A DNA stretch of 64,000 bases from an uncultured Holophagales bacterium (GTDB lineage Bacteria > Acidobacteriota > Thermoanaerobaculia > Multivoradales > UBA5704). The position numbers and the translations under genes were made by a program. The notes below the pieces were generated by a model. It had not been told where the DNA came from. It worked only from the letters and a program-made list of their open reading frames with translations, and did no database searches. Positions 43,154 to 61,379 of this stretch are shown piece by piece (position 1 is the first letter of the stretch; every line of letters starts with the position of its first letter). Where the stretch lies: assembly GCA_963842525.1 (NCBI GenBank), contig CAWJGT010000009.1, positions 1,024,001 through 1,088,000 of the forward strand, in the 5' to 3' direction.

Positions 43154-43456
43154 TCAGGGGCACTCTCCCCCGGGACAGCACAGGAACTGGTTGCAGAGGC
43201 AGCGGTTGGAGGGGGTGCAGAAGCAGGCGGGCTGGTAGGGGCATGGACAATCTGCGACCGTGGAGCATGGTGTGCCGGCCAGAAAGATGGCCGACTCGAG
43301 GGCCTGAAGATCTTCGTAGGCCTGAGAATCAGCGCCATCGAGGACCTGCTTGCACTCCTTGGCCGTGAGGTCTGCCCACGGCTCTGCCGCCGTCGCCTGA
43401 CCCGCGAAGCTGAACAGCAAGACCAATGCGAACACAACCAAGAGTCTCGTTCTCAT
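43154..43456 (-). CDS. Small secreted Cys-rich peptide precursor
   Basis: Signal peptide, acidic pro-region, C-terminal 40 aa with 10 Cys; strong RBS ggaggatagg. Confidence 0.7.
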   Translation of the reverse strand: MRTRLLVVFALVLLFSFAGQATAAEPWADLTAKECKQVLDGADSQAYEDLQALESAIFLAGTPCSTVADCPCPYQPACFCTPSNRCLCNQFLCCPGGECP

Positions 43457-43659
43457 TTCCTATCCTCCTTCCGTTGGTGGACAGCGCCTGCGGAGGAAAC
43501 CGTTCCGCCGCCCGCGCAGGCAGCCACTCTTCATGGTGCTCTGCGCCGCCGCAACGGGACGGACCCCCATCTGATGGGGGAGAAGGCCGGCCTGAGCCGG
43601 TTGCAGTAGAATCCAGCAGTAGCGGTCCCACAGTCGTCGACTTGAATCGAGGAGGTCTC

Positions 43660-44853
43660 ATGAAGTGGCTCGTCCTCACAGCGCTCGCTCTCCTCGCAGG
43701 GAATCCCTCAGCACTTGGTACGGCTGATGTGGTGAAGGAGGCCCACCTGGGCTCGCTGCAGGAAGGCGAGTTGCAGAAGCTCCTCGATCAGTTGCGGAAA
43801 GACGCCGGAGCCCCTGGAGCCATCCTTGGCATAGCTTCGGGGGACGGTCATCTCAAGGTTGTGGCGAGCGGCCAAGCCGACCGCGAGGCCGGCAGGCCGA
43901 TGGCCCCCGACACGCCCTATTTTCTCGGCAGCATCACCAAGACCTACACCGCCGTGGTCATCCTGCGTCTTGCAGAAGAAGGACGCCTCTCTCTCGACGA
44001 TCCCATAGCGCGTTTCCTACCCGCGTTCCCGGAGGGATCGAAGATCACCATTCGCCACCTCCTCACGCACACCAGCGGCCTGAAAGACTTCTATTCGCAT
44101 TTCTACTACCGGCCTGACCGCGAAGAGATGATCAGGCTGGTCACGAAGCGGTGGACGGAGGAGGAGCTTCTCGAGCTGTCTGGCCGTTTTGGCCGCTGGT
44201 TCGATCCCGGTACGGATTGGGATTACAGCAACACGGGCTACTACCTCCTCGGCGTCATCATCGAGCGCGCCAGCGGCCTGGCGTTGACTGAGGCGTACCG
44301 GCGCTACATCTACGAGCCTCTCGGCCTCCGCCGGACCTGGCTCGCCCAGCATGAAGAGGCGCGCGGGCCTTTGCCTGTAGGCTACATGGGGCCCGTGGAG
44401 GGCTGGAAACATTCCGAGATGTTTGGCGAGCTCGGATCCACAGCTGTGTTGGACCAGTCTTCGGTGGAGCTGAGCGCGGGCGGCCTGGCGGCCCCGGCGG
44501 AGGAGAGCCTTCAATTCCTCCGCGGGCTTTTTACAGGGAAGCTCCTGGCCCCCGCGTCGCTGGAAGCCATGCAGGGGTTTCGTGCCACGCCCTCTCTCGG
44601 CCTGTTCAGCAAGAGCGCGGCGCCTCCCAGCAAATTTGAAGGCTACGGCATGGGCTTCGTGAAGATCGAGCGTGCGGGCGTCACGCTCCTGGGGCATGGA
44701 GGGTTGTTCACCGGCCATGCGGCGGGGGTGTGGCACATCCCCGAACGCGGCATCACGTTCGCTCTGTACTTCAATCGTGGTCTCATCGATCAACGGCCAG
44801 CGCTGGATCAGGTGATCCACGTCGTGACGCGCCCGATTAAAGTGCCGGATTAA
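43660..44853 (+). CDS. Serine hydrolase, beta-lactamase/D-Ala-D-Ala peptidase family; last codons supplied by a repeat array
   Basis: GSITK, DYSN, GHGG; RBS ggagg. Confidence 0.9.
   Translation: MKWLVLTALALLAGNPSALGTADVVKEAHLGSLQEGELQKLLDQLRKDAGAPGAILGIASGDGHLKVVASGQADREAGRPMAPDTPYFLGSITKTYTAVVILRLAEEGRLSLDDPIARFLPAFPEGSKITIRHLLTHTSGLKDFYSHFYYRPDREEMIRLVTKRWTEEELLELSGRFGRWFDPGTDWDYSNTGYYLLGVIIERASGLALTEAYRRYIYEPLGLRRTWLAQHEEARGPLPVGYMGPVEGWKHSEMFGELGSTAVLDQSSVELSAGGLAAPAEESLQFLRGLFTGKLLAPASLEAMQGFRATPSLGLFSKSAAPPSKFEGYGMGFVKIERAGVTLLGHGGLFTGHAAGVWHIPERGITFALYFNRGLIDQRPALDQVIHVVTRPIKVPD
44795..44832 (+). repeat. 38-bp direct repeat, left copy (island boundary)
   Basis: ggccagcgctggatcaggtgatccacgtcgtgacgcgc; one mismatch to 57275-57312. 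Confidence 0.92.
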
Positions 44854-44903
44854 AGTGCCACCCAATTCGGATTAAAGTGCCGGATTAAAGTGCCACCCAA
44901 TTC
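44833..44903 (+). repeat. Stuttered motif array: GGATTAAAGTGCC and GGATTAAAGTGCCACCCAATTC in ABAB order
   Basis: Read directly. Confidence 0.9.
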
Positions 44904-44979
44904 AATCCCGCACCTCGGCGATTTCGATGAGGTGCAGCCTGGATCGATCGAACGACCGCGCGCAGAAGGGGGATCGAAC

Positions 44980-45288
44980 ATGGCACAGGTAGCCTTGGGA
45001 TTGCTCGTCCGTCTGGAAGCGAAGCCCGGCAAGGAAGAAGAGGTCGAGAATTTCCTGCGAGGCGGGCTGGCGATCGTCGACGAGGAGCCGGCGACGATCG
45101 CATGGTTTGCGATCCGCCTCGGCCCGACGACGTTCGGCATCTTCGACGCCTTCCCGGATGAAGCCGGCCGGCAGGCCCACCTCACGGGCCGGGTCGCGGC
45201 AGCGCTGATGGCGAAGGCGCCGGACCTGTTCGCCCAGCCGCCTGCCATCGAAAAGGTCGACGTCCTGGCGGCCAAGCTGCCGGGGTGA
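44980..45288 (+). CDS. ABM/quinol monooxygenase-like protein
   Basis: LEAKPGKEEEV..EEP.T.AWFA..FGIFDAFPDEAGRQAHL. Confidence 0.85.
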   Translation: MAQVALGLLVRLEAKPGKEEEVENFLRGGLAIVDEEPATIAWFAIRLGPTTFGIFDAFPDEAGRQAHLTGRVAAALMAKAPDLFAQPPAIEKVDVLAAKLPG

Positions 45289-45875
45289 CCGAGAACGAAG
45301 GACGGGCGCCGCAGGGCGGCTCTCAGGTCCGAAGCAGAGGCGAGAAGGCCGCCGCCGAGAACGGCGCCGCCCTGCCGCTCGTGCAGGAGGATGCGCAGGC
45401 CGGGTGAGGGCGTGACTTCCCTGGCCAGGCGGTGTTCCGCAGAGATGGCCCAGTCCATGACCACCCAACCCGCCGGGTCCACCGCTGGCGGCCCTCGACA
45501 TCTTCAGGAGATCGTCGTCTAGAACTCCTGGATCGCTCTGGCTACCAGCTTGAGGAGGGTTCGACCTCCGGCGCTCGTCAGGAGGGAGAGCCGCGGATAG
45601 CGATATTGACAGGGTGGGATCACATGCTCGCCAGACTGGCAAGCGGGGACCTGAGGCTCGGCAGCGAGCCGATCGTAGACCTGCCAGTCAGACTGGCTCT
45701 GCGCAGCGAAGGCGGAAGCCCATCCTTCCCGGGAGGGCGGCATCAGTTTGGCTCGGAACGGAACGGACGAAGCGTTCGGCGCGGGACAGGTCCCGGAAAT
45801 AAGGTCCTGGCGCGCGGGGTGCTGCTGGGGTTCGGGGAGGGGCAGCGGGATTAGGCACAATGCTGAAATTCTTTT

Positions 45876-46295
45876 GAGGTACCTCGGAACCGTTCGGAGG
45901 TACCGGAAAAAACTTCCGAGGTACCTCAGAAGTTTTCTGAGGTGCCCCAAAAACTTTTCGAGGTACCTCGGAACCGTTCGGAGGTACCGGAAAAAACTTC
46001 TGAGGTACCTCAGAAGCTTTCCGAGGTACTCCAGAAACTTTTCGAGGTACCTCGGAACCGTTCGGAGGTACCGGAAAAAAGTTCTGAGGTACCTCAGAAG
46101 TTTTCCGAGGTACTCCAGAAATTTTTTGAGGTACCTCGGAACCGTTCGGAAGTACCGGAGAAAACTTCTGAAGCCCGCCAGATCTCTTCAGAAGCGCTCC
46201 AGAATTCCTCGGAAGCTCCGGAGAACGGACCGGAAGTCCCGGAGAATCGTCAGGAAGCCCTCTCAAATCGTCCTCAAGCACGCCAGAAGCCTCGC
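45876..46295. repeat. About 20 x 21-bp array with an 84-bp higher-order period
   Basis: GAGGTAC (once GAGGTGC) at 45876, 45897 ... 46128, decaying to GAAG(C/T) at 46149-46254; four unit types cycle. Confidence 0.92.
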
Positions 46296-46308
46296 CTGCC
46301 CTCTCCTG

Positions 46309-46860
46309 TCAACTGGGCTGCGCCTGCCCGAAGCGGAGAGAAGGATCTGTCCGCGCCTCCTGAAGATACCTCGCATACTCCCGGACCGACCGGACCGTGA
46401 GCTGCTCCTGTCGCGCGGCCTCCTGGAAGAGCATCAGCGCGGCGACCGCTTCGCGATGGACGTCCTGCGCCTGGAAGATGGGGAAGATCTCCTCCGCCAG
46501 CCGCTTTACGTCCGCCACGCGCCCTTCCCGGACATAGAGGAGCGCGAGGTCCTCGATCGACACCATGGCCGCGTCATACCCGATGCCCTGGGCAAGGAAC
46601 CCGTCGCGCACCTGGAGGAAGATACGTTCGGCCTCCTCGCTCCGTCCGAGCCCGGCGGCGATCTTGCCCTGGAGCCACGAGAGCCGGAGCTGTGTCCACG
46701 CCTCGGGGAACTCCCGGTAGAGGCCCTCGTCCAGGACGAGCATCTCCGCCGCCTCGCGGTACTGGCGGTCCTCCGTCAGATACCGGGCCAGATTGTTGTA
46801 CCGCGCACAAAGGTAGAGCCGCGAGTCGTCCTCGGTCCGGATCGCCTGGGATGGCGCATC
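46309..46860 (-). pseudogene. 3' fragment of a TPR-like helical protein
   Basis: [51 protein letters not shown]; 5' end replaced by the intI fragment. Confidence 0.65.
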
Positions 46861-47267
46861 GGTGGCCTTTCTGGAGCACCCACCGCTCGCCTTCCGCCAT
46901 GGGAGGGAGGGGGGCGGTCCGCGTCCGCCACCTGCCCGTGGTGCTCACGCGGGAGGAGGTCAGGAGGATTCTCTCGTACATGACCGGCGGCGACCATCTC
47001 TTCATCTCTCTCCTGTACGGCACAGGTATGAGGCTGGCCGAGTGCCAGCGTCTGCGGGTCAAGGATCTCGACTTCGCCCAGCACCAGATCACGATCCGCG
47101 ATGGGAAGGGTGCAAAGGACCGGGTCACGATGTTGCCCGAGACCCTCGCGCCCGCCCTTGTTGGGCGACAATTAGAACTGCGGGGTGACGACAACTAGAA
47201 TTGCGGGTTTCCAGCCCTCGTAAACGCCTGTCCCGTAGGCTCTTGGCCCTCATGAATTGGGGGGCTG

Positions 47268-48744
47268 ATGTTGACGGATAGGCAGGTAAGGAGATTGAGG
47301 ATGGAACTTGGCAAGGGAGAGTCGTTGTCGAGCGCAGCTCTGCGCTCCGGGATGAGTGAGAACACGGCTCGGCGGTATCGCGAGGGTGGGCTTCCGGGCC
47401 AGCGCAGGGTGGTGCGGCAGTATCGGACCCGGCCGGACCCGTTTGCCGGGGTGTGGCCTGAGATCGAAGGGATGCTCGAGCAGGCGCCCGGCCTGGAGGC
47501 GGTGACGATCTTCGAGGCTCCTGAGGGGGCGGCCGGAGCTGAGCTTTTCGGATGGTCAGCTGCGTACGTTGCAGCGGCGGATCCGTCGTTGGCGGGCGTC
47601 GCAGGGTCCCGAGCGGGAGGTGATGTTCGCGCAGGAGCACCGCCCGGGGGAGTACGCCCAGAGTGATTTCACGAGTATGACGGAACTGGGCATCTGCTTC
47701 GGAGGCGAGCCGTTCGACCACCTGGTGTTCCATTTTGTGTTGCCGTACTCGAACTGGGAGACGGGCGGGATCTGCTTTTCGGAGAGTTTTGAGGCTCTGA
47801 TCAGTGGCTTCCAGGCCGCGGTCTGGGAGCTGGGCAAGGTGCCGAAGCTGCACCGGACGGACAACCTTTCGGCGGCCACCCACGAGTTGGGCGAGGGGGG
47901 CCGGACGTTCAACGAGCGCTACCTGGGTGCGCTCGCGCACTACCAGGTCCAGCCCGACTGCAACACCCCTGGGCGTGGCCACGAAAACGGCGATGTGGAG
48001 CAGGCGCACCACCGCTTCAAGCGGGCGGTCCAGCAAGCGCTTCTGCTGCGGGGAAGCCGGGAGTTTTCGAGCCGCGCCGCGTACGAGGTGTTCTTGGGGG
48101 AGATCTTTTTGGGGCGCAACCGGGGCCGTGCCGACAAGCTGCGCGAGGAGCTGGAGCAGATGAGGGATCTGCCGCTGTCGCGCCTGGACGATTTCCGGCG
48201 GGAGCGGGTCCGGGTCAGCGTGTTTTCCACCCTGCGGGTGTCCAACAACGTCTACTCGGTGGCCTCGCGGCTGATCGGCGAATGGGTGGACATTCGGCTG
48301 TATGCGGAGCGGATCGAGGTGCACTTCGCCGGCGAACGGGTGGCCGAGATGGATCGCCTTCGGGGCCGCGGCCACGCCGCCATCGACTATCGCCATCTGA
48401 TCTGGTCGTTAATCCGCAAACCGGGAGCGTTCGCGCGCTACCGGTACCGGGAGGCGCTGTTTCCGAGCCTGGTTTTCCGGCAGACCTACGATGCGCTGGA
48501 GGGGCGGCACGGGGCGCGTGCGGACGTGGAGTACGTGCGGATCCTGCACCTGGCGGCGAGCACGGGAGAGAGCGCGGTGGAGGGTGTGCTGGCGGCCCTG
48601 TTGGAGAGCGGCGAGCTGCGGGACTTCGCTCAGGTGCAGACGGCCCTTCGGCCGGTGCGCCTGGAGCCGCCGGTGTGCCGGATCGATCCTCCGGACCTTC
48701 GGGTCTACGACGAGTGCATCGCCGCGGCAGGAGGTGGCCTGTGA
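47268..48744 (+). CDS. istA: IS21 transposase, frameshift near 47518
   Basis: YRTRPDPF, QEHRPGEYAQSDFT, RTDNLSAA, HENGDVE, NVYSV.SRLIG; two overlapping frames. Confidence 0.88.
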
Positions 48745-49517
48745 AGCCGGCCAGCGAGGCGGGATTGCCGCTGCTGCTGAAATCGTTGTGCCTGCCGACC
48801 TTCGCCCGGGAGTACGCGACGGTGGCCGTCCAGGCGGTGCGTGGGGGGCTCACCCACGAGGGGTATCTGCTGGCTCTGGCCGAGCAAGAGGCCAGCGAAC
48901 GGTGCGAGCGCCGGGTGGAGAGACTGCTTCAGGAGTCCAGGCTGCCGCGAGAAAAGAGCCTGGCGGGCTTCGAGGTGGGCCGGCTTCCACCCAAGGCCAG
49001 GGCGGCCCTGGCCGCTCTTCAGGACGGCTCGTTTCTTGACCAAGCCACCAATCTGATCGTGTTTGGCAACCCCGGGACCGGCAAGTCTCACCTGGTCTGC
49101 GGTCTGGGCCAGGAGCTGGTGCGCGGGGGCCGGACGGTGCTGTTTTCCCCGACGTACCAGATCGTCCAGCGGCTCCTGGCCGCGAAGCGGGATCTGCGCC
49201 TGGCGGCCGAGCTGAAGCGGCTGGACCGATTCGAAGCCCTGATCCTGGACGACCTCGGCTACGTCGAGCAAAGCCGCGAGGAGATGGAGGTTCTGTTTAC
49301 CCTGATCGCCGAGCGGTACGAGAGGCGCTCGGTGCTGATCACCAGCAACCTGGTGTTCAGCAAGTGGGAGCAGATTTTCAAGGACCCGATGACGACGGCG
49401 GCCGCGGTGGATCGGATCGTCCACCATTCGGTGATCCTGGAGCTGAGCATCGAGAGCTACCGGGCACAGGCGGCCAAGGAGAGAGCTGCGGGAGCCAAGG
49501 GGGCCCGCGGGGCGTGA
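48741..49517 (+). CDS. istB: IS21 helper ATPase
   Basis: GNPGTGKSH, LILDDLGY, ERYERRS..TSN, AAVDRIVHH, SYR. Confidence 0.93.
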   Translation: MKPASEAGLPLLLKSLCLPTFAREYATVAVQAVRGGLTHEGYLLALAEQEASERCERRVERLLQESRLPREKSLAGFEVGRLPPKARAALAALQDGSFLDQATNLIVFGNPGTGKSHLVCGLGQELVRGGRTVLFSPTYQIVQRLLAAKRDLRLAAELKRLDRFEALILDDLGYVEQSREEMEVLFTLIAERYERRSVLITSNLVFSKWEQIFKDPMTTAAAVDRIVHHSVILELSIESYRAQAAKERAAGAKGARGA

Positions 49518-50247
49518 GCTCCAGAGCTTGGATGGGCCATGCTACCGCGCATAATTGCAATCGCTGAAGGATGCCCGCAGCTGCGGGCATCCTTCCCTGC
49601 TAAGTCCCTGCCCCCCGGAAGGAGGTCAAGAGCCGACCAGCCCCCACCCGGCCCCCTGAAAGAAGCTCCCCCCGCCCCCCGTAGGAGTGTTGACACGAAC
49701 TGGAGGAGGATCCCGCAGTTCTAATTGTCGCCGACCCTCAATTCTAGTTGACGCCGGACACGCCCTCGAGGAGCATCTGCGCAGTGTGCGAGAGCAACAT
49801 CGCAAGGATCTCGCCGAAGGCCACGGCCGGGTCCATCTTCCTTATGCGATCGAGAGAAAATACCCACGAGCGGCAGCGGAGTGGGGTTGGCAGTGTCCTG
49901 AACCGTGGGGGGAAGGGGGTCTTGAGCCTTCTCGACAACCTGTAGCTTAGACGACCGGCGGCTGACGCAAGGGACTTCACAGCACTCTCGGCAAGTCGCT
50001 GCCTTGCCGAGACTTGAGCCCTGCCTCTAGGACGGCTTCATGCCCCCCTTCCAGCCGCAGATCGCTCTTTTGCACCTGATCTCGGGCGACCTTCTCTGAC
50101 GCATAAGAACTTCTCGTGTACCTGAAACGCCAAGCGCACGTGGAGTCAGATGCGATCTTCTCGACCGCCTTCGCTTGCCAGGCATGACGTGGTCGCGACC
50201 TCGCGGGCACAGGGGCCACAGAGTGCTTATGTGCGGCCGGGGCGGTG

Positions 50248-50276
50248 TTGACGCACGTTAGGAAGAGGTGTAGAGT
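50248..50276 (+). promoter_or_regulatory. Possible sigma70 promoter facing the cassette array
   Basis: TTGACG-N17-TAGAGT. Confidence 0.35.
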
Positions 50277-50302
50277 CAACTAAGTCGAAGAGGATAAGCA
50301 CC

Positions 50303-50611
50303 TTGCACGCCCGCAACCCTGGGCCCGGCCGTGGAGTCAACCCCCAGGTTGCGTCGCATGGGTGGGAAAAGCTGCAGCGCCTAGTCAAAATGCGAAATGA
50401 TTTAACCCATCCTAAGAGTGTGCATGACACCCTGTTAAGCCCTGAGATGCCCAACGTCATTCGCGATGCAGCAGTCTGGTTCTTGGGGTGCATGCGTGAT
50501 CTTATTGCGACGGCCGACACCCAACTGCTGGAACAGAGCTTCAAGGAGACGGCGAAGATGCCAGAAATGCAGAAGCTACTAGCTGAAAGGGCAGCTCGAA
50601 AGGAGAAGTAG
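50303..50611 (+). pseudogene. Cassette 1: C-terminal remnant of a HEPN-like protein
   Basis: WEKLQRLVKMRNDLTHPKS (Rx4H); followed by attC; 5' part missing. Confidence 0.55.
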
Positions 50612-50622
50612 TTGAAACCGCC

Positions 50623-50682
50623 GCCGAACCCCGCTGCTCAACCGGATGGCTGCGCCACCGGTTAGCAGCAACAGCGTTCTAC
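50623..50682 (+). other. attC site 1
   Basis: GCCGAAC...tgctcaaccgg..ccggttagca...GTTCTAC. Confidence 0.82.
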
Positions 50683-50725
50683 GCCAAAGGTACACCGGCA
50701 GCGCGAATGACCGACGAACCATTCC

Positions 50726-51052
50726 ATGAGCCGAACTTTTGAACAGATCGTCAGGTTGGTGGCAAGCCGTGATGTGCGGGTCTCGGTGCATGGCTATGAC
50801 GAACTCGCAGCTGATGGTATTCTCGTCCGCGATGTTGTCGCTGGTGTCCACGAAGGTGAGGTGATTGAAGACTATCCAGACTATCGAAAAGGCCCTTGCG
50901 TTTTGGTGTTGCAAAAGGATCAAGGCGGCACGCCGATTCATGTTGTGTGGGGTATCCCCAGCGGCAAATCATCCCCAGCCGTAGTGGTGACGGCGTATAG
51001 ACCGAAGCGCGAGAAATGGACCGACGACTACAAACGCAGGAGAAGGCAATGA
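50726..51052 (+). CDS. Cassette 2: DUF4258-like toxin
   Basis: SVHGYDEL, EVIEDYP..GPCVLVL, PIHVVWG, VVTAYRP...W. Confidence 0.8.
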   Translation: MSRTFEQIVRLVASRDVRVSVHGYDELAADGILVRDVVAGVHEGEVIEDYPDYRKGPCVLVLQKDQGGTPIHVVWGIPSGKSSPAVVVTAYRPKREKWTDDYKRRRRQ

Positions 51053-51261
51053 GTACGCGCCACAGGAAGTTCGTTCATGAAGGAGAGTACGCTGCGGAGG
51101 TCGAGGTCGATCTCATCGAGGCAGAGGAGGAGTGGTCCCCATATTTGTCACTTGAGGATGCTGAGAAGCTCGATACTGTCCGCGAAGCCCTTCGCCGCGG
51201 CGATGTCAGAGAAGCAAGCAAGGTGGGGCGCGTATTCCGACTGACTCCGCTGTCGGCATGA
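51049..51261 (+). CDS. Cassette 2: probable antitoxin
   Basis: ATGA overlap with the toxin; HEGEYAAEVEV..WSPYLSLEDA..ALRRGD. Confidence 0.7.
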   Translation: MSTRHRKFVHEGEYAAEVEVDLIEAEEEWSPYLSLEDAEKLDTVREALRRGDVREASKVGRVFRLTPLSA

Positions 51262-51273
51262 TGACACGCTGGC

Positions 51274-51332
51274 GTAGAACCCAGGCTTGCAGCGCACAGC
51301 TTCGCCGTCGCTGAAGCCCAGCAGCGTTATGT
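51274..51332 (+). other. attC site 2
   Basis: GTAGAAC (complement of the preceding GTTCTAC)...GTTATGT. Confidence 0.88.
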
Positions 51333-51388
51333 GACATGGCAGCGTAGGCGTAGAGGCCTCGCGCATGTGATCCCGGAGCATCCGTAGC

Positions 51389-52018
51389 ATGCCATCACTC
51401 TCGGCTCTCCAACTCCTTCTTGCCGCGCTTACTGGAGCGGCGGGCGCCTTAATCATACGGATTGTCCTAAGACTCTACCTCCGCTCCAGAGAGTCCAAGA
51501 GAGCGCTAGCAGTTTACTATTGTGGTAAGCGATCGCCGACGCCAGGTGGACTCGATCACGGCTGGGGCCAAGAGTCAAAATCAAAAGGCCCCTCTGGCCG
51601 TAATGTATGGTTATACACAGAGGAGCCTACCGACCAAATACACCCTCGTGAGCATACAATATACGGCCCCTATGTAAACGACCTTGGGCGGCCAGGATAC
51701 TACCGAGTAGCCTTCTCAATCTGTGCTAAGAACTTCTTGCAGAACTCAGACAGATCTGTATTGTTACTAGATGTAGTGCAGGCACCCTTTGGAGGCACTA
51801 CAACCTATGTCTTGCATGGGCAGCGACTGATTAGGGAAGACGAACTAGCAAGCGGTAAGGAGCAATACAATACCTATGAAATCGAATTCTATGCACCCGG
51901 AACTGGAGTTTATGAATACCGTGCACGGGTGTTCGGAAGCAATGTGACTCGCGATCAAACGGTTGAGTTTGACACAATCCGTGTTTTCCGCAATACTCCC
52001 CTGTGGGAGGTGTTCTAG
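51389..52018 (+). CDS. Cassette 3: N-terminal TM plus beta-sandwich hypothetical protein
   Basis: Low-GC ORF filling the cassette; YGPY..PGYYRVAF..YEYR. Confidence 0.7.
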   Translation: MPSLSALQLLLAALTGAAGALIIRIVLRLYLRSRESKRALAVYYCGKRSPTPGGLDHGWGQESKSKGPSGRNVWLYTEEPTDQIHPREHTIYGPYVNDLGRPGYYRVAFSICAKNFLQNSDRSVLLLDVVQAPFGGTTTYVLHGQRLIREDELASGKEQYNTYEIEFYAPGTGVYEYRARVFGSNVTRDQTVEFDTIRVFRNTPLWEVF

Positions 52019-52030
52019 GGTGGAGAGGGC

Positions 52031-52090
52031 ACATAACCCGGGCGCTGCACAGGACGGCTGACGCCGCCTGTGAGCTTCCACTCGTTGGGC
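52031..52090 (+). other. attC site 3
   Basis: ACATAAC (complement of GTTATGT)...GTTGGGC. Confidence 0.88.
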
Positions 52091-52143
52091 GTCTCTAAGA
52101 AGAGCGATGGCTACTACAGCCCGATCGAATAGGAGGAAAGCCA

Positions 52144-52665
52144 ATGGCGAGACTTGCGGCTATTCCGGCGAGTGCGGCTAGTGCGCTTAGTTCTACGCCA
52201 TTCTGGCGAGGGGAGTTTCGCCCTGAAGCTGTGGGCTTGCCTCCAGTGACATTCAAGCTAAGGCAAGTGTTCGTGTTGATGCCGATGGAAGGCGAAGAGG
52301 CGGAGGAAATCTACCGGACACTGAAGGCCGCCTGTGCGACAGTCGATCTGATAGCAACGAGGGTGGACGAGAGGGTCGGTGCCCGAATCATTATGCAAGA
52401 TATCGACCGAATGATGGGAGAGGCCGAGTTTCTCATATTTGATCTAAGTAAAGAGCGCCCAAATGTCTACTATGAACTCGGCTATGCCCATGGTATTGGC
52501 AACAATGCCGAGAACATCTTATTAATAGCCCGCGAAGGCACGCATATTCACTTTGATGTTGCACCTCTACGGATCCAGTTCTATCGATCGACCGATCACC
52601 TCCAGTCTCTTGTTGCCTCACAGCTAAGCGCAATGAAGCAAATCACACGAGGATTGGTACGATGA
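52144..52665 (+). CDS. Cassette 4: nucleoside 2-deoxyribosyltransferase-like (NDT/TIR-like fold) protein
   Basis: FVLMP..RVD..I...AEFLIFDLSKERPNVYYELGYAHG..FDV. Confidence 0.78.
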   Translation: MARLAAIPASAASALSSTPFWRGEFRPEAVGLPPVTFKLRQVFVLMPMEGEEAEEIYRTLKAACATVDLIATRVDERVGARIIMQDIDRMMGEAEFLIFDLSKERPNVYYELGYAHGIGNNAENILLIAREGTHIHFDVAPLRIQFYRSTDHLQSLVASQLSAMKQITRGLVR

Positions 52666-52724
52666 ATTGCACTGGCCGGCAGTCTGAGCTGCGTCGGCGG
52701 TTCCAGGGCGTACTGCCAATCGGC

Positions 52725-52801
52725 GCCCAACCCCGGCTGTCGAGCGGACGGAAACCGCAAACAGCGCGGTTCCCGCTCGCTCACCTTCTGCGGCGTTGGC
52801 C
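52725..52801 (+). other. attC site 4
   Basis: GCCCAAC (complement of GTTGGGC)..gagcggacggaaaccgc..gcggttcccgctcgctc..GTTGGCC. Confidence 0.88.
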
Positions 52802-52816
52802 GTCGCAGGAAGCTAA

Positions 52817-53494
52817 ATGGCTGATCTGAAGCTGCATCACATTGGAGAGCCCTTGGTCGCCAGGATGCTTCAGAAGCTTGAGGCGGCCGGGCGGCTCTCG
52901 AACTTGGTCTGCGAGCGTATGCACGTCTCGGTTGAGGATGACATCGTTGCTGGGGGACTTCAAAGGCCGATCGAGTTCTTTCCGGAGAGAGCAACCCTCG
53001 GTGTCTCGGCCAATGGTGAAGAATTGATCTGTGATGGCGCACAGAAGGTTGATGTCCTCTGCGTGAGTAGTGGCCAGCGGGCCATGGCGTTCGAGCTCAA
53101 GCTGGGAGAGGAGCGACTTGGGACCAACGAGTTCGAGAGACGGTTCTTGGGAAAGTGCTCCACTTCCCATGCTGGTTCTCGGCTCAAGGGCTCAATGATC
53201 TCTGTACTTGATCGCAGTTTCTTGAGGACCGACGCGGCGGTTCTCCGGGCATCCGCATCGCCTCCTACTGGTGGGCCTATCAAGAAGTGGGATGTCGTCC
53301 GTCCTTGGTGGCTGGTCATCAGGAACAGTGTTTGGTTCCGATGGAAACAGTCCGGGATACCGGGCTTGACCAATGGGCGTATCCTCGTCATCGAGAAAGT
53401 CGTCCGAGAACTCGGAGGCGAGGAGGTCTTCAATGGTTTGGTCCGTGAGGTTCTATGCGGCAACTTTTTCGAGGCGTGGGAGATAGGTCAGTGA
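52817..53494 (+). CDS. Cassette 5: hypothetical protein, possible PD-(D/E)xK nuclease
   Basis: KVDVL....AMAFELKLG resembles D...ExK. Confidence 0.6.
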   Translation: MADLKLHHIGEPLVARMLQKLEAAGRLSNLVCERMHVSVEDDIVAGGLQRPIEFFPERATLGVSANGEELICDGAQKVDVLCVSSGQRAMAFELKLGEERLGTNEFERRFLGKCSTSHAGSRLKGSMISVLDRSFLRTDAAVLRASASPPTGGPIKKWDVVRPWWLVIRNSVWFRWKQSGIPGLTNGRILVIEKVVRELGGEEVFNGLVREVLCGNFFEAWEIGQ

Positions 53495-53500
53495 ACCGCC

Positions 53501-53562
53501 GGCCAACCAAGCGGCTCCAGCGGACGGCTGACGCCGCGCGCTGAGCCGCCACAGCGTTAGGC
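53501..53562 (+). other. attC site 5
   Basis: GGCCAAC (complement of GTTGGCC)..cagcggac..cgctga..GTTAGGC. Confidence 0.88.
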
Positions 53563-53579
53563 GTTTTGAGGCAGCACCT

Positions 53580-54278
53580 ATGAATCGAACTGAAAAACTG
53601 AACGAACTGCGAGCCCTCGCGCAGAACAAGCCGACGATCCCAAACGAGGAATTCGGCGCATGGCAAGCGCGGGTGTCGGCGCTCATTGGTTTCGACCGTC
53701 TGCAACAAGACAAGTTCCGCCACTTGGCGAGTTCGGCGACGATTCCCGGTGACGACTTCTTCCCGTCGTGCATGCGCCAGATGGAACAGATCCTCTTCCA
53801 AGCCATAGCGGACTTGGAGGTTGGTCCAGATGTCCCAGCCGAGCCACCTGCCGAATCCGGGAAGCCAATAGACGTATTCATCAGTTATTCGACTACCGAC
53901 AGAGCGATTGCAGAGGAGTTAGCCAATCGTCTCAGAGCACTTCAGCTTACAGTCTTCTTGTCGCACGACACCATCACAACGGGACCCGCATGGCGTTCAC
54001 AAGTCGGTGTCGTCCTTCGTCGCTGCGGCGTAGCAGTGCTGCTCTTGAGCACGCAATCACTCCACAGCGATTGGGTTCGTTACGAGATTGGAGCATTATG
54101 GGCACTTAATAAGCCTGTCGCTCCGGCTCTGCTCGACTGTGATGCATCTCAACTTCCTGAGCTTGTGCGCGATTTCCAATCACGCTCAGTTGCAACCGCC
54201 TCAGATCGCGCCGTCTTTTGCCACGAAGTGGAAAGACTGGTCCGCGATACTCGAACAAATGACAACCGAAACGCCTAA
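53580..54278 (+). CDS. Cassette 6: TIR-domain protein; attC truncated after GCCTAAC
   Basis: DVFISYS..D..AEEL..L..VFL, SDWVRYEIG (catalytic E); GCCTAAC at 54273-54279 complements GTTAGGC. Confidence 0.85.
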   Translation: MNRTEKLNELRALAQNKPTIPNEEFGAWQARVSALIGFDRLQQDKFRHLASSATIPGDDFFPSCMRQMEQILFQAIADLEVGPDVPAEPPAESGKPIDVFISYSTTDRAIAEELANRLRALQLTVFLSHDTITTGPAWRSQVGVVLRRCGVAVLLLSTQSLHSDWVRYEIGALWALNKPVAPALLDCDASQLPELVRDFQSRSVATASDRAVFCHEVERLVRDTRTNDNRNA

Positions 54279-54279
54279 C

Positions 54280-54380
54280 CGGAAATAAGTGCCAGCCGAA
54301 TCTAGCCTGGCCCAAACCCGAAATGAGTGGCCCAAACCCGAAATGAGTGCGGCCGAAATGAGTGCCCGAAATGAGTGCCA
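54280..54380 (+). repeat. Stuttered motif array: GAAATAAGTGCCAGCCGAATCTAGCCT followed by four CCGAAATGAGTG
   Basis: Read directly; replaces the rest of attC 6. Confidence 0.88.
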
Positions 54381-54399
54381 CCCATTAGAAGGCTCTTGT

Positions 54400-54820
54400 C
54401 AACGACCCACACGTCTCCCACCCGGGAGTGTTCGTTTCAAGAACGGCTCGTTCCGGCAAGATGTGCTCCCGTGTCGGGTTTGCGCGCCCGTAGTCTCGCT
54501 GTGCTTCAGGTGCGGAGATCCGCACCAGCCACCCATCGGGATCAAGGCGGGTCGGAGCCGGTGACGGCTCCGACCCGCCCCTGGCACGGTTTGCGTGCCC
54601 CCAGAAAATCTTCGGTTCCAGGTTCGTGTCCAAGGTTCAGGACAACCAATAAGGCTACCTCCTCCCCCCGAAGGGGGTTCAGAGGTGCCAGCACATTCGG
54701 GCTCACGACCTGGGCGCATCTCCGACAAAAGAGCCAAAAACGGTGGAAGACAGGGGCCAATCAGCCGTAGAGGGTTCTTTCGCCCAGCACCTAATTGCAG
54801 GCTCCCTGTCTTCCACCTGA
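54400..54820 (-). ncRNA. Putative bridge/seek RNA region of the IS110
   Basis: About 420 bp non-coding, several hairpins, position typical of IS1111-type elements, short matches to the target; RNA ends unknown. Confidence 0.55.
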
Positions 54821-54821
54821 A

Positions 54822-55838
54822 TCAACCAAAAGCTTGCGCCGACCTGAACGGCACCTGGTCGCGCAGGATGTAGAACGCGGCACGAGTCAGCTTGTTCGAG
54901 ATCGTCCGCAGGGCCACCAACTCGTTGGTCCTGGCCCGCTTGCGCTCGTAGAGACGCTTGGCGAGGGGCTCGAACCGAATGGCGAAATGTGAAGCCTCCA
55001 TGAACGCCCAGGACAGGTACGGGTTGCCATTGCGTACGTTGCCGGAACCCTTGACCTTGCCGTTGCTGAGGTGCTGACTGGGTACACAGCGGCAGTAGGA
55101 GGAGAAGTGGCCCGCCTCGGCAAAGCGAGCGATGGAGCCGGTTTCGTACATGATCGTCAGGGCAAGGGTCAGACCGATGCCGGGAATGCTCTCGAGCAGC
55201 TCGAACTCGGGCCTCAGTCTGGCCTGTTTGAGAACAGTTTTCTCGATGCCAGAGATTTGGTCTTTCAGCGTGCGGGCGATCGCCAGGCTGCTGGTGATCG
55301 TCAAGGCGATATGTGGGTCCGTGAATTGCTCCTCGACCTGCTCGGCCGTCATGCGCTTGAGCTCGCTGAGGGGAACTTGCGCTCCGGTGTAGCGCGAGAA
55401 GACGTTTTTGACGCTCAGCAAGCTGGCGGTGCGCTGTCGCACCAGAAAGGCTCGGCGGCGCAGTAGATCTCGCACCGCGCGCTCCTTTTTCGGATAGATG
55501 TGACCGGTGGGCAGAATGTTGAGGTGGAGCAGGCGCGCCAGCCACCGCGCGTCATGGCGGTCATCGACGTACTTCAAGCCCTCGTACTGGCGGACAGCGG
55601 AGGTGTTGACCAAGCGAACCTCGTAGCCGGCCTCCATGAGCCCATCCACCAACCAGTACCAGTTGAAGGTGGACTCCACGGCGGTCGCCTGGATCTGCTC
55701 TCGGAAGGGCTCCAGGGATTCCAGGACCGCCTCCAGACGGTTGGGCACCCGCCTGCTGAGGACCGATTGCAGTTGCTCGTTCATCACCACGAGATAGCTG
55801 TTGGTTGAATGCAAGTCGATTCCACAGTAAAGTCCCAT
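54822..55838 (-). CDS. IS110 family DEDD recombinase/transposase
   Basis: GIDLH, VEST, K..DRHDA..LA, SIPGIG, RF, SNGK, GNPYL. Confidence 0.93.
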   Translation of the reverse strand: MGLYCGIDLHSTNSYLVVMNEQLQSVLSRRVPNRLEAVLESLEPFREQIQATAVESTFNWYWLVDGLMEAGYEVRLVNTSAVRQYEGLKYVDDRHDARWLARLLHLNILPTGHIYPKKERAVRDLLRRRAFLVRQRTASLLSVKNVFSRYTGAQVPLSELKRMTAEQVEEQFTDPHIALTITSSLAIARTLKDQISGIEKTVLKQARLRPEFELLESIPGIGLTLALTIMYETGSIARFAEAGHFSSYCRCVPSQHLSNGKVKGSGNVRNGNPYLSWAFMEASHFAIRFEPLAKRLYERKRARTNELVALRTISNKLTRAAFYILRDQVPFRSAQAFG

Positions 55839-56171
55839 GCGCTCCTCCTTTCAGGGATTGGTCTCCCGACGAGCCTATCGCGGCTCGTCAGAAGGGAGGA
55901 GCCTTCTAGAGGATCATCAGCCGAATCTAGCCTCCTGAAGAGTCAATTGCACTGCCGAGCCGCGCTTCGGTGTGGCTTCGGTGCGCAAACTGGCAGGTGA
56001 AGGGCACCTGAGCACGCCGAGAGGTGGTCGCTCACTCCTTGTGTGGAGCGTTGAAAGCCTGTATCGCGCTTTTTGAGGGTTCCAGGGATAGACCTCTCCC
56101 GATCCCGCGCCAGGAAGTCAGCGGCCGGCCGGAAACTACGAAGGCTGTCAGCGGCCCGAAGTCCCGAGGGC

Positions 56172-57096
56172 CTACCCACTTACCCAGGGCAGGGCCGGCG
56201 GGAAGCTGCCTGCCGGGAAGACAACATCGCGCACTCCCGCCCGGAGCTTCTCCGCGGCGGTCCGGAAGGCGCCCACGAACTCGCCATAGGCTCGATAGAA
56301 CTCGAGACGGACGTTCTTGCTCGCCGCATGGAAGAGCGGAGCAGGAGATTTCTTCGGTTTGGCCGGCCGGTCGTGACGCTTCTGGGCGCAGACTGCTTCG
56401 GGACCCAGGACAGGACGGCCCATGGCCTCGCGGACCTCCGCAGCCCGAGACTCGATGCTGGCCACCAGAGCGGCGATCCGCTCGCGGTACTGTTGAGGAG
56501 TGAGATGCGCCCAGCAGGGGAGCTGCTCGAGCTTGAGGGTGTATTCGGTCGCGAAGTCGAGACGGTGGAAGGACTGGCCTCTCTGGCGGGCGGCGTACTC
56601 GCTCGAGCGGTTGAACCAGTGGCCGACGAGGAGAGCACCATCCAGCAGAGCGGGGACGACGCTGACGCCCGGCCAGTCCCGGAGGGTTTGGACAAGTCCC
56701 TCCTTGACCCCGTGGCTCAAAATGTACGCGAGGCGTTCGATCTGGGCCTGGGGCTCGTCGCTGATCGGGATGGCCTGAAAGCGGCGGGACCAGAACTTTT
56801 CCCGCCAGTCGGCCAGGCGCCCGGCTTCGCGGGCAAGATTTGAGTTGAAGTGATTCATGAATGAGGCGAGTCGGCGCGTGTCGTCGACCTGGAGAAGGAG
56901 GTGATAGTGCCCGGAGGCAAAGGCGAAGGCGATGAGGCGGACGGGGTAGAGCTGCCTGGGCGCGTCCGAGGGCGCCGAGGATGAGGTCATTGAGCTCCGC
57001 AGAGGGAGCGAGCAGGAAGCGGCCGTGGACGGTCCGTGTGGTGACCTCGACAAGTCCGCTCCCCTCGGGTGGCATGAAACGGAGTTTTCGACTCAT
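56172..57096 (-). CDS. Y1/HUH transposase (RAYT/IS200-like), frameshift near 56955
   Basis: MSRKLR..VEVTTR..GRFLL, then FASGHYHLL (HUH), FWSRRF, LAYILSHGVKEGLV..WPG (catalytic Y). Confidence 0.8.
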
Positions 57097-57230
57097 GCCC
57101 CTTAAAAAGACGTAAAACGGGTCGCCGATCTTGCATAACTCGGAAAAGTTCTTGCCGCGGACCGGAATGATGACTGAATGTCAACGGACGGCGGATCTGT
57201 GGAGGTAGTCCAGAGCGGTCCCGAGCGAAG

Positions 57231-57274
57231 CTGTTCGGCTGGCACTTCTGTCTGTTCGGCTGGCACTTCTGTCT
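57231..57274 (-). repeat. Tandem 21-mer ACAGAAGTGCCAGCCGAACAG x2 (minus strand)
   Basis: ctgttcggctggcacttctgt occurs twice. Confidence 0.9.
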
Positions 57275-57312
57275 GGCCGGCGCTGGATCAGGTGATCCAC
57301 GTCGTGACGCGC
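57275..57312 (+). repeat. 38-bp direct repeat, right copy (island boundary)
   Basis: Matches 44795-44832 at 37/38. Confidence 0.92.
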
Positions 57313-57323
57313 AACCCAGCATC

Positions 57324-57532
57324 CCCAGAGAGGCGGCCAGGGCGGTAGTCACCAGGGACCAGAAGAGCTCTGCGCCGGGATAGACCGCGAGCAGGCGGAA
57401 AAAGCTCCTGGCGCGCAGACGTTCAAAATTGTTCGACCATCGTGCGCGTTCGTCCGGATTGGACAGCAGCGGCAGCAGTGGCGTCTCCACTCCGATGCGG
57501 AGGATCAGATTGGCCGAAACGATTCCGGGCGC
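57324..57532 (-). repeat. 209-bp duplicate of the 3' end of the 1072-aa gene (other copy 58198-58406)
   Basis: Aligned by eye: 6 mismatches, no gaps. Confidence 0.92.
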
Positions 57533-57586
57533 TGCACCAAGGTGCCAGCCGCCCCTGAGGCACTTATTTCGTGGCGAGCACTTAGA

Positions 57587-57853
57587 TTAGGGGAAGTATC
57601 TGTAGATATCTCGGCGGTGGAGAATTCTGACCAGCGTTGCTTGGTCGCCTTCGATCATAAGACCCAGGCGGTAATCACCGATACGGATGCGATAGTACGC
57701 TCCGGGACCTTGGAGCTTTCTGAGCTGAGGGATCTCTCCAATCCCATCGGCGCACTCAACCGCCTCGATGACTCGCTTGACACGAGCCCGAGCTTCCGGC
57801 TGCCGGAGCTGCCGCAAGTCCCTGGCGAAGCTCTCGCGAAAGCTGGTTTTCAC
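57587..57853 (-). CDS. RelE/ParE family toxin
   Basis: SFARDLRQL..KLQG..YYRIRIGDYR..HRRDIYR. Confidence 0.9.
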   Translation of the reverse strand: MKTSFRESFARDLRQLRQPEARARVKRVIEAVECADGIGEIPQLRKLQGPGAYYRIRIGDYRLGLMIEGDQATLVRILHRRDIYRYFP

Positions 57854-58053
57854 TCTTCGAGGATCCGGAAAACCTCGTCTCGCCCCACAGGCAGGCTCTG
57901 CTCGCCTTCACGGATCGCATGGACCATGCCGATGTCCTCCAGAGCCTCTTCCAAGAGATCCAGCACAAGATCCCTGCGCTCTTCGAGTACCTCGATCATG
58001 GCCGTCTCGACCAGATTCTTGATCCTGCTGTCTTCAATGCTCGCGTCCGCCAT
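57850..58053 (-). CDS. Antitoxin partner
   Basis: Acidic 67 aa, EALEDIGM..AIREG..V.RDEVF; overlaps the toxin start. Confidence 0.8.
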   Translation of the reverse strand: MADASIEDSRIKNLVETAMIEVLEERRDLVLDLLEEALEDIGMVHAIREGEQSLPVGRDEVFRILEE

Positions 58054-61100: not shown

Positions 61101-61379
61101 CCGCCCCGCTTCCGGGCTCTCGCGCGCCGCCAGGAGCCAGACCACCGGGCGATACGGGACGCCGGGAATGGCGACGCGCCGCCGGAAGCGCAGCCAGGCG
61201 ACCGTTGGCGCGATGACGTCGATCCCGTCGACCTCACCGTCAGCAAGCTGGTCGCCGTCCCGTAAGAGGACATCGCGGCTTCGCGCCCGCACCCGCGCCA
61301 CGCCGCCAGTCGACGTCGAATAGATTTCTTTGACCGTGATCTCGTCGATGGACAACCCGGCGAGAGACTGCTCGTCCAC
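58161..61379 (-). CDS. Membrane protein with two PilP-like domains, TPR-like region and C-terminal TMs
   Basis: Repeat L.ID....GI..A.V...LR.GDQL.DG...ID..(Y/F)R.VV occurs twice; RRDPF motif twice; several TMs. Confidence 0.6.
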   Translation of the reverse strand: MDEQSLAGLSIDEITVKEIYSTSTGGVARVRARSRDVLLRDGDQLADGEVDGIDVIAPTVAWLRFRRRVAIPGVPYRPVVWLLAARESPEAGRRLRRGLTIGGAGVEAHRLGDELLGGKGFPPWIWGLSIENAPRLVAGMLERSDLRKRVRSDRARLLLEPGFGMIEVPFSSREKLREVFRPSYGAATRRDPFLDLSYQARPQPLWNDPGLPTSSDLLIDDLKVEGLFITPWGPVAEVRSAQKHFSLREGDQLYDGDLDRIDLQQGLIFKQIEQDPTTVYPFRQVVKRLDPRWTSAAGASRKTADEAWALADRPAGRRDPFRSLLPTGVPTENPPSALAKLTCDHLTSAGDTIAEVLEQARLRLARYSWERGLVADQQALRTAWARRFLDDIEQTASADLARLFSGLPGLESLRSTPVPPPGEMFALLGDLNLVAGRLAAAAEAYGLAEQTSPGLETLCGRMFDGKLWGAESYLSLSGWNDTRYYWLTGYLLAWDPASGRVLERHLLPAAPEAFAVERGDLQVTLRGAGTVRLAGLRRAAPGRVPANLVLRAAAIENGTLLADNLVNVAFAGPRSSFDVLGPIDDHLPLDLPELEKASRAAALRDPTQPWHLFFLGQALWAEGRRQEAETLWRRIWEGGPWATPYYELLWMAVFHEIYGQRDWADRAFAQALEQRRRLPRPIVASQAAERRINAATSWLDNGLRDPGKRHLWWRRLREISGIAPGDAFRAALWVDDLERRRDRAGARDERAFLRQARRYPFDPVTRSAWLDYSLYVVMACAAMLFARLAVAGSRMVRRRPALRRLRWPGWRQAAQATFRSHGLALLILFMALYLALSLSILAASYLGYLTAVPRELGDVVAARQAQASYEDRYELTTADVLRAWITKGVVEPATQTPARLIQKAQAIRSYSAGARLLLALAGIAAMFVIALPAGLLLAWGRARVVVARCIPGAAQVRAGSRLKGYLVFGLSVFAVAPLAWLVVARTCGAVPAPGIVSANLILRIGVETPLLPLLSNPDERARWSNNFERLRARSFLRLLAVYPGSELFWSLVIAALAASLGAVATVAKPRAP

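Follow-up and report, generated by a model that had tools for sequence, protein, structure and literature searches.

Stuttered motif arrays around an integron-bearing island of an uncultured Holophagales bacterium as probable terminal inverted repeats of a Y1/HUH transposon family

This report concerns a 12.4-kb island in the genome of an uncultured Holophagales bacterium (contig CAWJGT010000009.1 of assembly GCA_963842525.1), which lies within an analyzed stretch of 64,000 nt (the window; G+C 66.7%) and which contains a Y1/HUH transposase gene, the remains of an integron and several stuttered arrays of a motif of the form AAGTGCCA(G/C)CC. It appears from comparison with related loci that these arrays are terminal inverted repeats (TIRs), about 27 bp long and with the window consensus CCGGAAATAAGTGCCAGCCGAATCTAG, and that the owner of the motif is a family of HUH (Y1) transposons that has been little studied and is common in the Thermoanaerobaculia. 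One of the right-end TIRs (RE2) appears in turn to have received an RNA-guided insertion sequence (IS) of the IS1111 type, and the island itself is, to judge from proteins related to the one at its edge, a real insertion, with a decayed integron lodged between two converging genes in an arrangement that is unusual, with precedents. Taken as a whole, this reading (arrays that are Y1 TIRs, an IS1111-type element in one end, a 12.4-kb insertion with a dead integron as cargo, and several steps that we infer for the Y1 enzyme) is in our judgment probable, with appreciable room for error.

A first-pass annotation of this DNA had described a 38-bp direct repeat bracketing the island, stuttered arrays directly inside both of its copies and at the break of the sixth attC site, a Y1/HUH gene between the 54.3- and 57.2-kb arrays, and further copies of the motif beside a toxin-antitoxin (TA) module, and each of these was found again where it had been placed (Table 1). 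The two copies of the direct repeat match at 37 of 38 positions, and the TA junction, which borders the ParE/RelB module, carries GGTGCCAGCC at 57541 and GGCACTTATTTC at 57559-57570. In the left array GATTAAAGTGCC occurs four times, two of these copies being followed by ACCCAATTC, and the Tandem Repeats Finder (TRF) reports a 35-nt unit present 2.0 times at 100% identity (44835-44903). The right array (57231-57272) consists of a 21-nt unit in two copies (2.1 in TRF, also at 100%) that reads AGAAGTGCCAGCCGAAC on the minus strand. The middle array opens with GGAAATAAGTGCCAGCCGAATC at 54280-54301, immediately 3' of the R'' box (GCCTAAC) of the sixth attC, and continues at 54308-54379 with partial units in tandem (20 nt x 2.1 at 100% and 13 nt x 3.2 in TRF). 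These arrays account for four of the seven tandem-repeat loci of the window that score at least 65 (nine rows, some of them overlapping). The pattern AGTGCCASCC is matched six times in the 64 kb, each time within one of the arrays, as compared to an expectation of 0.34 and to 100 shuffles of which none reached six, and when the rest of the window (50.4 kb beyond the island) was scanned with a position weight matrix (PWM) made from ten TIR instances, no TIR copy above chance came up. By both measures the TIR copies of the window are confined to the island. All of the TIR-type ends of the island share one orientation relative to the Y1 gene; these are a left end (57.2 kb), a pair of right ends (54.3 kb), the right-end-type array (44.8 kb) and the TIR pair (57.5 kb).

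The assignment of these arrays to the Y1 gene comes from a scan of genomes with the Y1 protein, which yielded four related loci (L001 to L004) from 90 candidate stretches. Three of these (L001, L003 and L004) belong to one assembly and L002 to a second, both of Thermoanaerobaculia and neither of them the source genome of the window, and their Y1 proteins are 56-79% identical to that of the window. At the nucleotide level the similarity to the window is limited to the Y1 gene and some 50-90 nt upstream of it. The ~245 nt that follow the Y1 stop codon cannot be aligned between loci, and at that distance there is a related right end of ~27 nt in L001, L002 and L004, which in ungapped comparison matches the right end of the window at 21 of 27 positions in L002 and at 18 of 27 in L001. 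The reverse complement of this ~27-nt end also lies upstream of the Y1 gene in the window, L004, L002 and L001. In the window the two ends (54279-54300 and 57255-57276) match in inverted orientation at 19 of 22 positions (86% complementary) and L004 has an inverted pair of its own (15/19); the pairs of L002 and L001 were read by eye and not picked up by the aligner. Since one end repeats the other in inverted orientation, we take the gene to belong to a TIR-flanked Y1 element. IS110-type and intI genes are absent from all four loci, which argues that the TIR is independent of both.

Stuttering at these ends is likewise not peculiar to the window. If CRISPR arrays are set aside, the best tandem repeats of these loci are located at the ends of the Y1 elements, with an 18-nt unit x 2.2 in L001, units of 14 nt x 3.2 and 35 nt x 2.3 in L003, a 12-nt unit x 5.4 in L004 and none in L002; the nested partial copies noticed in the window therefore recur at element ends in three of the four related loci. 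At three right ends (those of the window at 44.8 kb, array a, and at 54.3 kb, array c, and that of L004) what is repeated is the outer part of the TIR, 12-13 nt long and reaching as far as GTGCC or its equivalent, and the partial outer units sit outside one complete TIR. That the repeated units stop at a fixed place in the TIR suggests a processing point between its outer and inner halves, and this regularity is the best support for a presumed cut-and-restart at the motif.

A few further arrangements of these ends should be mentioned. In L004 the Y1 element lies within a CRISPR array with a 37-nt repeat (306-711 and 2309-2422), beside its right end there are part of a repeat and 15 nt of duplicated spacer (target) DNA, and a duplication of 10-12 bp is possible and ambiguous. 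Beyond the elements themselves L001 has two additional TIR copies, both in the intergenic stretch 2700-3433: an exact 28-nt copy of the Y1 left end (2859-2886, the same as 9676-9703) and a strong right-end-type TIR (3409-3433), with a small open reading frame (ORF) on the minus strand between them, and this stretch may be a gene-less TIR-bounded element. L002 has a second left-end-type TIR variant, GGAAGTGCCACCCGATCC, at 9110-9134, some 360 bp outside the proper left end, and its nested left ends, with a 108-aa ORF between them, mirror the nested right ends of the window.

The Y1 gene of the window is a fragment that scores 25.9 bits against Pfam Y1_Tnp (cut-off 23), and its four intact homologues score 26.4-35.7 bits. 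The histidines of the HUH metal-binding motif and the single catalytic tyrosine are invariant in the 14 aligned members (H49 and H51, in the context S-x-H-Y/F-H-L-L-L, and Y110) and in a larger alignment of 37 sequences (H63, H65 and Y124), the tyrosine motif of the family being Y-[VI]-L-[AS]-H-G, or Y-x3-HG. Among 4760 candidates there are 1655 relatives with E <=1e-5; they are typically ~307 aa long and come mostly from Thermoanaerobaculia assemblies, many of them on contigs of 1-5 kb. A PDB search with the single Y1 sequence gave no match, nor did a protein search of a plasmid collection, and the C-terminal ~170 aa of the four intact homologues have no Pfam match to a helix-turn-helix (HTH) or Bac_DnaA_C domain at E <=1.

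In the first-pass annotation the motif had been attributed to a RAYT-like system, RAYTs being the transposases associated with repetitive extragenic palindromes (REPs): an enzyme of that kind would nick the single-stranded DNA of a REP-like motif, and re-initiation of replication would produce the stutters, capture cargo and leave long duplications. The part of this proposal that ties the motif to the Y1 family holds, in that related TIRs flank the Y1 homologues of L001, L002 and L004 and that in L003 they are present upstream of it, and the proposal also gains from the stutters at element ends, the fixed point at which the repeated unit ends and the presence of cassette arrays beside the right end in two genomes. 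The enzyme, however, reaches 39.1 bits against the NCBIfam RAYT model NF047646, the cut-off of which is 80, and its Y-x3-HG is not the Y-x3-NP given for class 2 by Quentin et al. 2018 (PMC6006769). When eight end regions were folded as single-stranded DNA, seven had z-scores between -1.82 and +0.41 and were no more stable than shuffles, so that there is no consistent hairpin (the single stable fold, with z -3.04, spans the repeat array together with an IS end). Moreover, the motif is not dispersed in the 50 kb of flanking genome, being confined in the window to the island, the gene is present in three copies (L001, L003 and L004) in one assembly, and neither L001 nor L002 has a long duplication. 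On the counts of model score, hairpins, dispersal within the window and gene copies we reject a RAYT/REP system as such, and we regard the wider RAYT-like mechanism as unlikely.

The TIR-flanked Y1 element that we prefer has a closest described kind in the TIRtrons or TIRYT, names that Di Nocera et al. 2013 (PMC3733652) gave to Y1 genes with flanking inverted repeats in place of REPs, noting among them a group specific to the Acidobacteria, and that Quentin et al. 2018 linked to subclass 2.1. As far as the relevant portions of these publications go, the two have in common a RAYT-like Y1/HUH gene with TIRs in place of REP hairpins, TIR copies that occur singly, in pairs or in clusters, the Acidobacteria group and long proteins with a C-terminal extension. 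They differ in that the published motif GGGGWSAS, which most described TIRs share, is not matched here by either core (GTGCCAGCC and GTGCCACCC) or by their complements, in that the C-terminal HTH/Bac_DnaA_C of subclass 2.1 was not detected here, and in that multi-kb cargo, insertion at cassette arrays, stutters of partial units and long duplications are not described in those portions. The placement is made from the published descriptions.

Other known systems resemble the element less closely. REPtrons (RAYT/TnpA-REP) share with it cognate repeats that flank the gene in inverted orientation, tandem clusters of these and insertions of IS110-family elements into them; they differ in that the repeats here do not form hairpins and are not dispersed in high copy within the window (L001 has the two additional copies), that the gene is multi-copy and that the tyrosine motif is another one. 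The IS200/IS605 elements (IS608, ISDra2) have the same catalytic domain (Pfam Y1_Tnp), and ISDra2 TnpA gave a weak profile match, whereas their ends are distinct subterminal hairpins in place of TIRs and their enzyme is ~140 aa long, as compared to TIRs, no hairpins found and ~307 aa here. IS91 and ISCR elements, with their one-ended rolling-circle capture, are a known case of an HUH enzyme that, when it fails to stop at its proper end, carries neighbouring genes to a surrogate end. Their enzymes are of the Y2 type and their ends are not inverted repeats, and nothing at the present locus shows rolling-circle copying.

The evidence that the island is an insertion comes from the serine hydrolase gene at its left edge. 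The protein ends today in ...VTRPIKVPD, its final codons being supplied by the left array, and the DNA to the right of the island (57300-57345) would give it the tail ...VTRNPASPERRPGR. Among the C-terminal tails of 31 relatives, six continue with TRNP, one of them being that of the closest relative (89% identical), which ends in TRNPSPERPPGS (...VTRNPSPERPPGS), and the island-encoded tail was seen in the window's own protein only. Because relatives carry the tail that is encoded to the right of the island, we take the island to be a true insertion, with an empty site seen at the protein level. Relatives of the 1072-aa protein on the other side have variable tails. A second long repeat (57310-57532 and 58188-58406; 223 and 219 bp, with 212 identical columns of 223) has one copy on each side of the 655-bp ParE/RelB module, both copies keeping the reading frame, and its copy A begins where the right copy of the 38-bp repeat stops, so that the two repeats share the breakpoint 57312/57313. 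In the ancestral order that we reconstruct, the 1072-aa gene would have had its stop ~12 nt to the left of the 38-bp repeat and would have overlapped the hydrolase gene tail to tail by ~80 bp; after both duplications each gene retains a nearly complete copy of its own end. The 12.4 kb are bounded by the left end and by the distal right-end-type array, each of which adjoins a 38-bp copy to the base.

The course of events that we favor would then be as follows. The window would hold one autonomous-type Y1 copy, with a left end at 57231-57276, a frameshifted gene and tandem right ends at 54279-54308 and 54366-54382/55916-55933, as well as two further gene-less ends (the array at 44833-44903 and the 39-bp TIR pair at 57533-57571), and 12.4 kb would have been inserted where two converging genes overlapped at their 3' ends. 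The Y1 enzyme would act at the TIRs and, by using an alternative distal right end, would have moved the element along with the neighbouring cassette array; the stutters would be by-products of cutting and rejoining, or of re-copying, at the point where the outer half of the TIR meets the inner one, after GTGCC. The 38- and 223-bp repeats might have arisen from widely staggered nicks in the target, one of them fixed at 57312/57313, or else by insertion at 57312/57313, formation of a circle with 38 or 223 nt of flanking DNA and homologous recombination of this circle into an empty site. The second route fits because the breakpoint is shared, the repeat copies differ (at 1 of 38 positions and in 11 of 223 columns) and the reading frame is intact in both 223-bp copies. 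Whether in one way or the other, it is by conjecture that the Y1 enzyme is given a part in moving the whole 12.4 kb or in making the long repeats; that cargo may travel with the element is favored by the cassette array at the right end in L002 and by the TPR gene at the right end in L001.

A number of points weigh against this account. The resident Y1 gene is broken, as its alignment with the four homologous loci makes plain, and the profile of 14 sequences matched solved structures only marginally (ISDra2 TnpA, 2xm3, E 0.057; TnpA-REP, 4er8, E 0.064). The distal array has PWM scores of 26.3 and 23.0 bits, and such scores are partly circular in the window and descriptive only, because four of the six window hits are among the instances from which the matrix was made; the array is identical to the resident right end (54279) at just 18 of 27 positions and to the left end at ~16 of 25 by our own count, and it may come from another subfamily and not be used by the resident enzyme. 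L001 and L003 have divergent left ends that fall below the PWM threshold, and beside the TA module a TIR is present on just one side. No long direct repeats flank the Y1 elements of L001 and L002, where there are only scattered 9-11-mers away from the ends, and the long flanking repeats of L004, which had been a candidate for a second long duplication, were rejected as CRISPR repeats; long duplications are therefore not a trait of the family. The sample of related loci is small (n=4), the source genome lies outside the collection searched, and the 2013 and 2018 catalogues, in the portions used here, offer no evidence of mobility of TIR-flanked Y1 genes or of its mode. To the latter question the present loci bring sequence-level signs of mobility (one element inserted in a CRISPR array, another insertion in two gene ends that overlapped, and several copies in one assembly), a consistent anatomy of the ends and a likely processing point between the TIR halves.

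Direct repeats derived from the 3' end of a gene are typical of integrated elements, and it could be supposed that a circular element, derived from a plasmid or an integrative and conjugative element, integrated by site-specific or homologous (Campbell-type) recombination at the hydrolase 3' end with the 38-bp repeat as its attachment site, the TIR arrays being later or incidental and any recombinase of its own having since been lost. The origin of the repeat in the hydrolase 3' end would suit this, as would the differences between the repeat copies and the frame kept in both 223-bp copies, which are as expected for recombination between diverged alleles, and so would the iteron-like 21-nt array inside the island. 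But the family scans found no intact integrase in the island, as had been annotated at the outset, and no recombinase besides the intI pseudogene and the IS transposases; the TIR arrays adjoin both copies of the repeat to the base and in inverted orientation; and a TIR is present at the junction of the second long repeat as well. We accordingly hold an integrated circle to be rather improbable.

Within the Y1 element as we read it, the second right end is interrupted by the IS1111-type element, the transposase of which scores 188.3 bits against transpos_IS110 NF033542 (cut-off 140), 54.5 bits against PF01548 DEDD_Tnp_IS110 and 65.6 bits against PF02371 Transposase_20. A subterminal inverted repeat, TAGAAGGCTC, lies at 54386 and 55899 (10 nt perfect, extendable with mismatches), and the non-coding region extends for 425 nt from the stop codon to the subterminal repeat. 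In its putative RNA AGCCCGAAU is followed by GCUGGCACC, the two overlapping on the target ATTCGGCTGGCAC; the former is complementary to the target top strand and the latter matches it, these being matches of 8-10 nt, each of them weak alone. Rfam has no model for this RNA at gathering or relaxed thresholds. According to Siddiquee et al. (PMC11187229) the IS1111 branch is characterized by subterminal repeats of 11-13 bp, a seekRNA layout and a 7/3-bp extension rule, and the two matches, of the kind by which this family finds its target, stand in the order published there for the IS1111 family. We set the boundaries of the element by the 7/3-bp rule, and they are uncertain by ~3 bp because six extra bases remain in comparison with an intact TIR. 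Since the IS would sit inside RE2 and RE1 is complete outside it, the 16-bp repeat CAGCCGAATCTAGCCT is explained. The 54.3-kb stutter had been considered as a part of the IS and was rejected as such, the subterminal repeats placing it outside. As for the alternation of G and C in the motif, the C of the copy at 54374 falls where the IS meets its target, and elsewhere it is a natural variant of the TIR.

Relatives of this element, according to the sources used here, insert into attC sites (the IS1111-attC group), into the ends of Tn21 (IS4321/IS5075) and into REPs (ISPpu9/10), and they share with it the DEDD transposase, the subterminal repeats, a downstream non-coding region with a seekRNA-like pair of matches and the habit of inserting where a second mobile element has its end repeat, here at the end of a cassette array. 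The differences are that a Y1 transposon TIR was not found among the targets that those sources report and that the 7/3-bp rule leaves six extra bases; such a TIR would be a new natural target for RNA-guided recombinases. These habits, the position of the IS inside one copy of the motif and the match of its non-coding RNA to the motif on both strands might lead one to see in the motif a mere target or footprint of the IS, unrelated to the Y1 gene, which we find very improbable given that related ends accompany Y1 homologues in four loci that have no IS110-type gene and that the spacing between the Y1 stop codon and the end is conserved. Exact tandem copies and junction repeats can also come from assembly, an origin for the stutters and long repeats that we scarcely credit, with comparable stutters at the same kind of end in two other independent assemblies, window proteins recorded on a contig of 1,975,831 bp and repeat copies that are not identical.

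The cargo between the distal array and the tandem right ends is for the most part the debris of an integron. Two fragments of intI score 108 bits (46692-47198) and 42.4 bits (49687-49950) against TIGR02249, both under its cut-off of 265, and match positions 93-174 and 168-215 of the model; the stretch ALERKYPRA...W..WQ, which may belong to the extra segment specific to integron integrases, can be read, and the gene is dead. The IS21-family element that splits it has perfect inverted repeats of 21 nt and a 6-bp target duplication (CGCCCT), with istA in two frames (47268-47666 and 47569-48744) and istB also present. The pseudogene is on the same strand as the cassettes, with its 3' end toward the array (49950/50303), an inverted layout in place of the usual divergent one, and no attI site was located. 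Along the cassette array each attC has an R' box that is complementary to the R'' box of the site that follows, and the five whole sites, folded as bottom strands, give bulged hairpins with z -4.19, -1.39, -2.24, -4.21 and -2.22; the sixth (z -0.69) is reduced to its R'' box (54272-54278). The motif was ruled out as a part of this sixth attC, being absent from sites 1 to 5 and present beside Y1 genes elsewhere. Three of the cassettes (50726-51261, 52144-52665 and 53580-54278) encode DUF4258 with a small overlapping ORF, which is toxin-antitoxin-like, and two proteins with a TIR domain (the protein domain of that name), which are defense-like; the remaining three match no family. At 45793-45812 there is a degenerate outer half of a TIR, CCGGAAATAAGGTCCTGGCG (80% identical to 54279-54298), directly 3' of a GTTCGGC box with which the R'' box of the first attC would pair.

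The other loci offer parallels to this layout. In L002 the Y1 right end adjoins a truncated SLFN_AlbA_2 cassette, which belongs to a cassette array in antisense orientation that has two attC sites, and beyond the left end there are chromosomal genes, as in the window. In L001 a TPR gene (11024-12031, with TPR_12) stands directly beside the Y1 right end and is the homologue of the TPR fragment of the island (38% identity over 137 aa, E 4e-26). One may speculate from this, and we think it doubtful in its full extent, that the Y1 family habitually lodges at the ends of cassette arrays, that alternative distal ends enable it to carry whole arrays, TA modules and TPR genes to new places in the chromosome, that the processing of its ends leaves the stutters and that intermediates with flanking DNA leave direct repeats of tens to hundreds of bases. 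If it were true, this would be an HUH-driven route to the mobile integron; and if the link to arrays holds in more genomes, it would be a new route of integron mobility outside the clinical Tn402/Tn21 setting, and the family would join the IS1111-attC elements and the group IIC introns as a third class among the elements that home to cassette arrays.

Table 1. Features of the island and its borders as read here (positions in the window; PWM scores are descriptive)
Feature	Position	Strand	Remarks
Serine hydrolase gene, beta-lactamase fold	43426..44853	+	PF00144 208.6 bits; last 7 codons including stop are island sequence
38-bp direct repeat, left copy X	44795..44832	.	37/38 identical to 57275-57312
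Orphan right-end-type TIR array (a)	44833..44903	+	Two full TIR units CCGGATTAAAGTGCCACCCAATTC, a 13-nt outer-half unit before each
ORF of 102 aa, cargo	44980..45288	+	No Pfam or NCBIfam match
Array of 21-nt units on palindrome GAGGTACCTC	45871..46171	.	84-nt super-unit x 3.6 at 93%, TRF score 518
TPR gene, 3' fragment	46309..46743	-	Full-length homologue in L001
intI pseudogene	46917..49950	+	Without 5' part, split by IS21, internal deletion
IS21-family element	47158..49760	+	IstB 185.9 bits, rve/Mu-transpos_C, transpos_IS21 153.7 bits
Six gene cassettes	50303..54278	+	DUF4258 pair, two TIR-domain proteins, unknowns
Five whole attC sites	~50622-50687, 51276-51334, 52033-52094, 52725-52799, 53503-53564		
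Putative outer right-end TIR (RE1) of Y1 element	54279..54308	+	Adjoins attC-6 R'' box; PWM 28.8 bits
Stutter of outer-half TIR units CCGAAATGAGTG x 4	54309..54382	+	Last unit is the outer half of second right end RE2
IS1111-type (IS110-family) element in RE2	54383..55915	-	Transposase 54822-55838, non-coding 54397-54821
RE2, inner half	55916..55933	+	Shares 16 nt with RE1, the direct repeat CAGCCGAATCTAGCCT (54293, 55918)
Y1/HUH transposase gene	56172..57096	-	Pfam Y1_Tnp; frameshift by one extra base near 56960
Putative left-end TIR (d)	57231..57276	-	21-nt unit x 2; PWM 21.1 and 16.7 bits
38-bp direct repeat, right copy X'	57275..57312	.	Contiguous with ancestral hydrolase tail
223-bp repeat Y, copy A	57310..57532	.	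Duplicated 3' end of 1072-aa gene
Motif (e), miniature TIR pair, 39 bp	57533..57571	+	TIR core AAGGTGCCAGCCG, 7 nt, inverted outer half GGCACTTATTTCG; PWM 15.9 bits
ParE toxin and RelB-like antitoxin genes	57587..58053	-	PF05016 33.8 bits, PF25734 50.1 bits
1072-aa gene	58161..61379	-	Holds copy B (58188-58406); last 9 codons are inserted DNA

Some lesser features remain to be recorded. On the serine hydrolase the NCBIfam beta-lactamase models all fall far under their cut-offs. The 21-nt array inside the island comprises fourteen units, with weaker copies to ~46260, and looks iteron- or centromere-like; no rep or par gene was recognized near it. At the far left of the window a 3434-aa ORF (735-11039, minus strand) has a 45-nt tandem repeat x 3.2 (93%) in its 3' part (743-889), and antisense within the same ORF there is a match to the Acido-Lenti-1 RNA motif at 5125-5170 on the plus strand (43.5 bits; gathering threshold 37).

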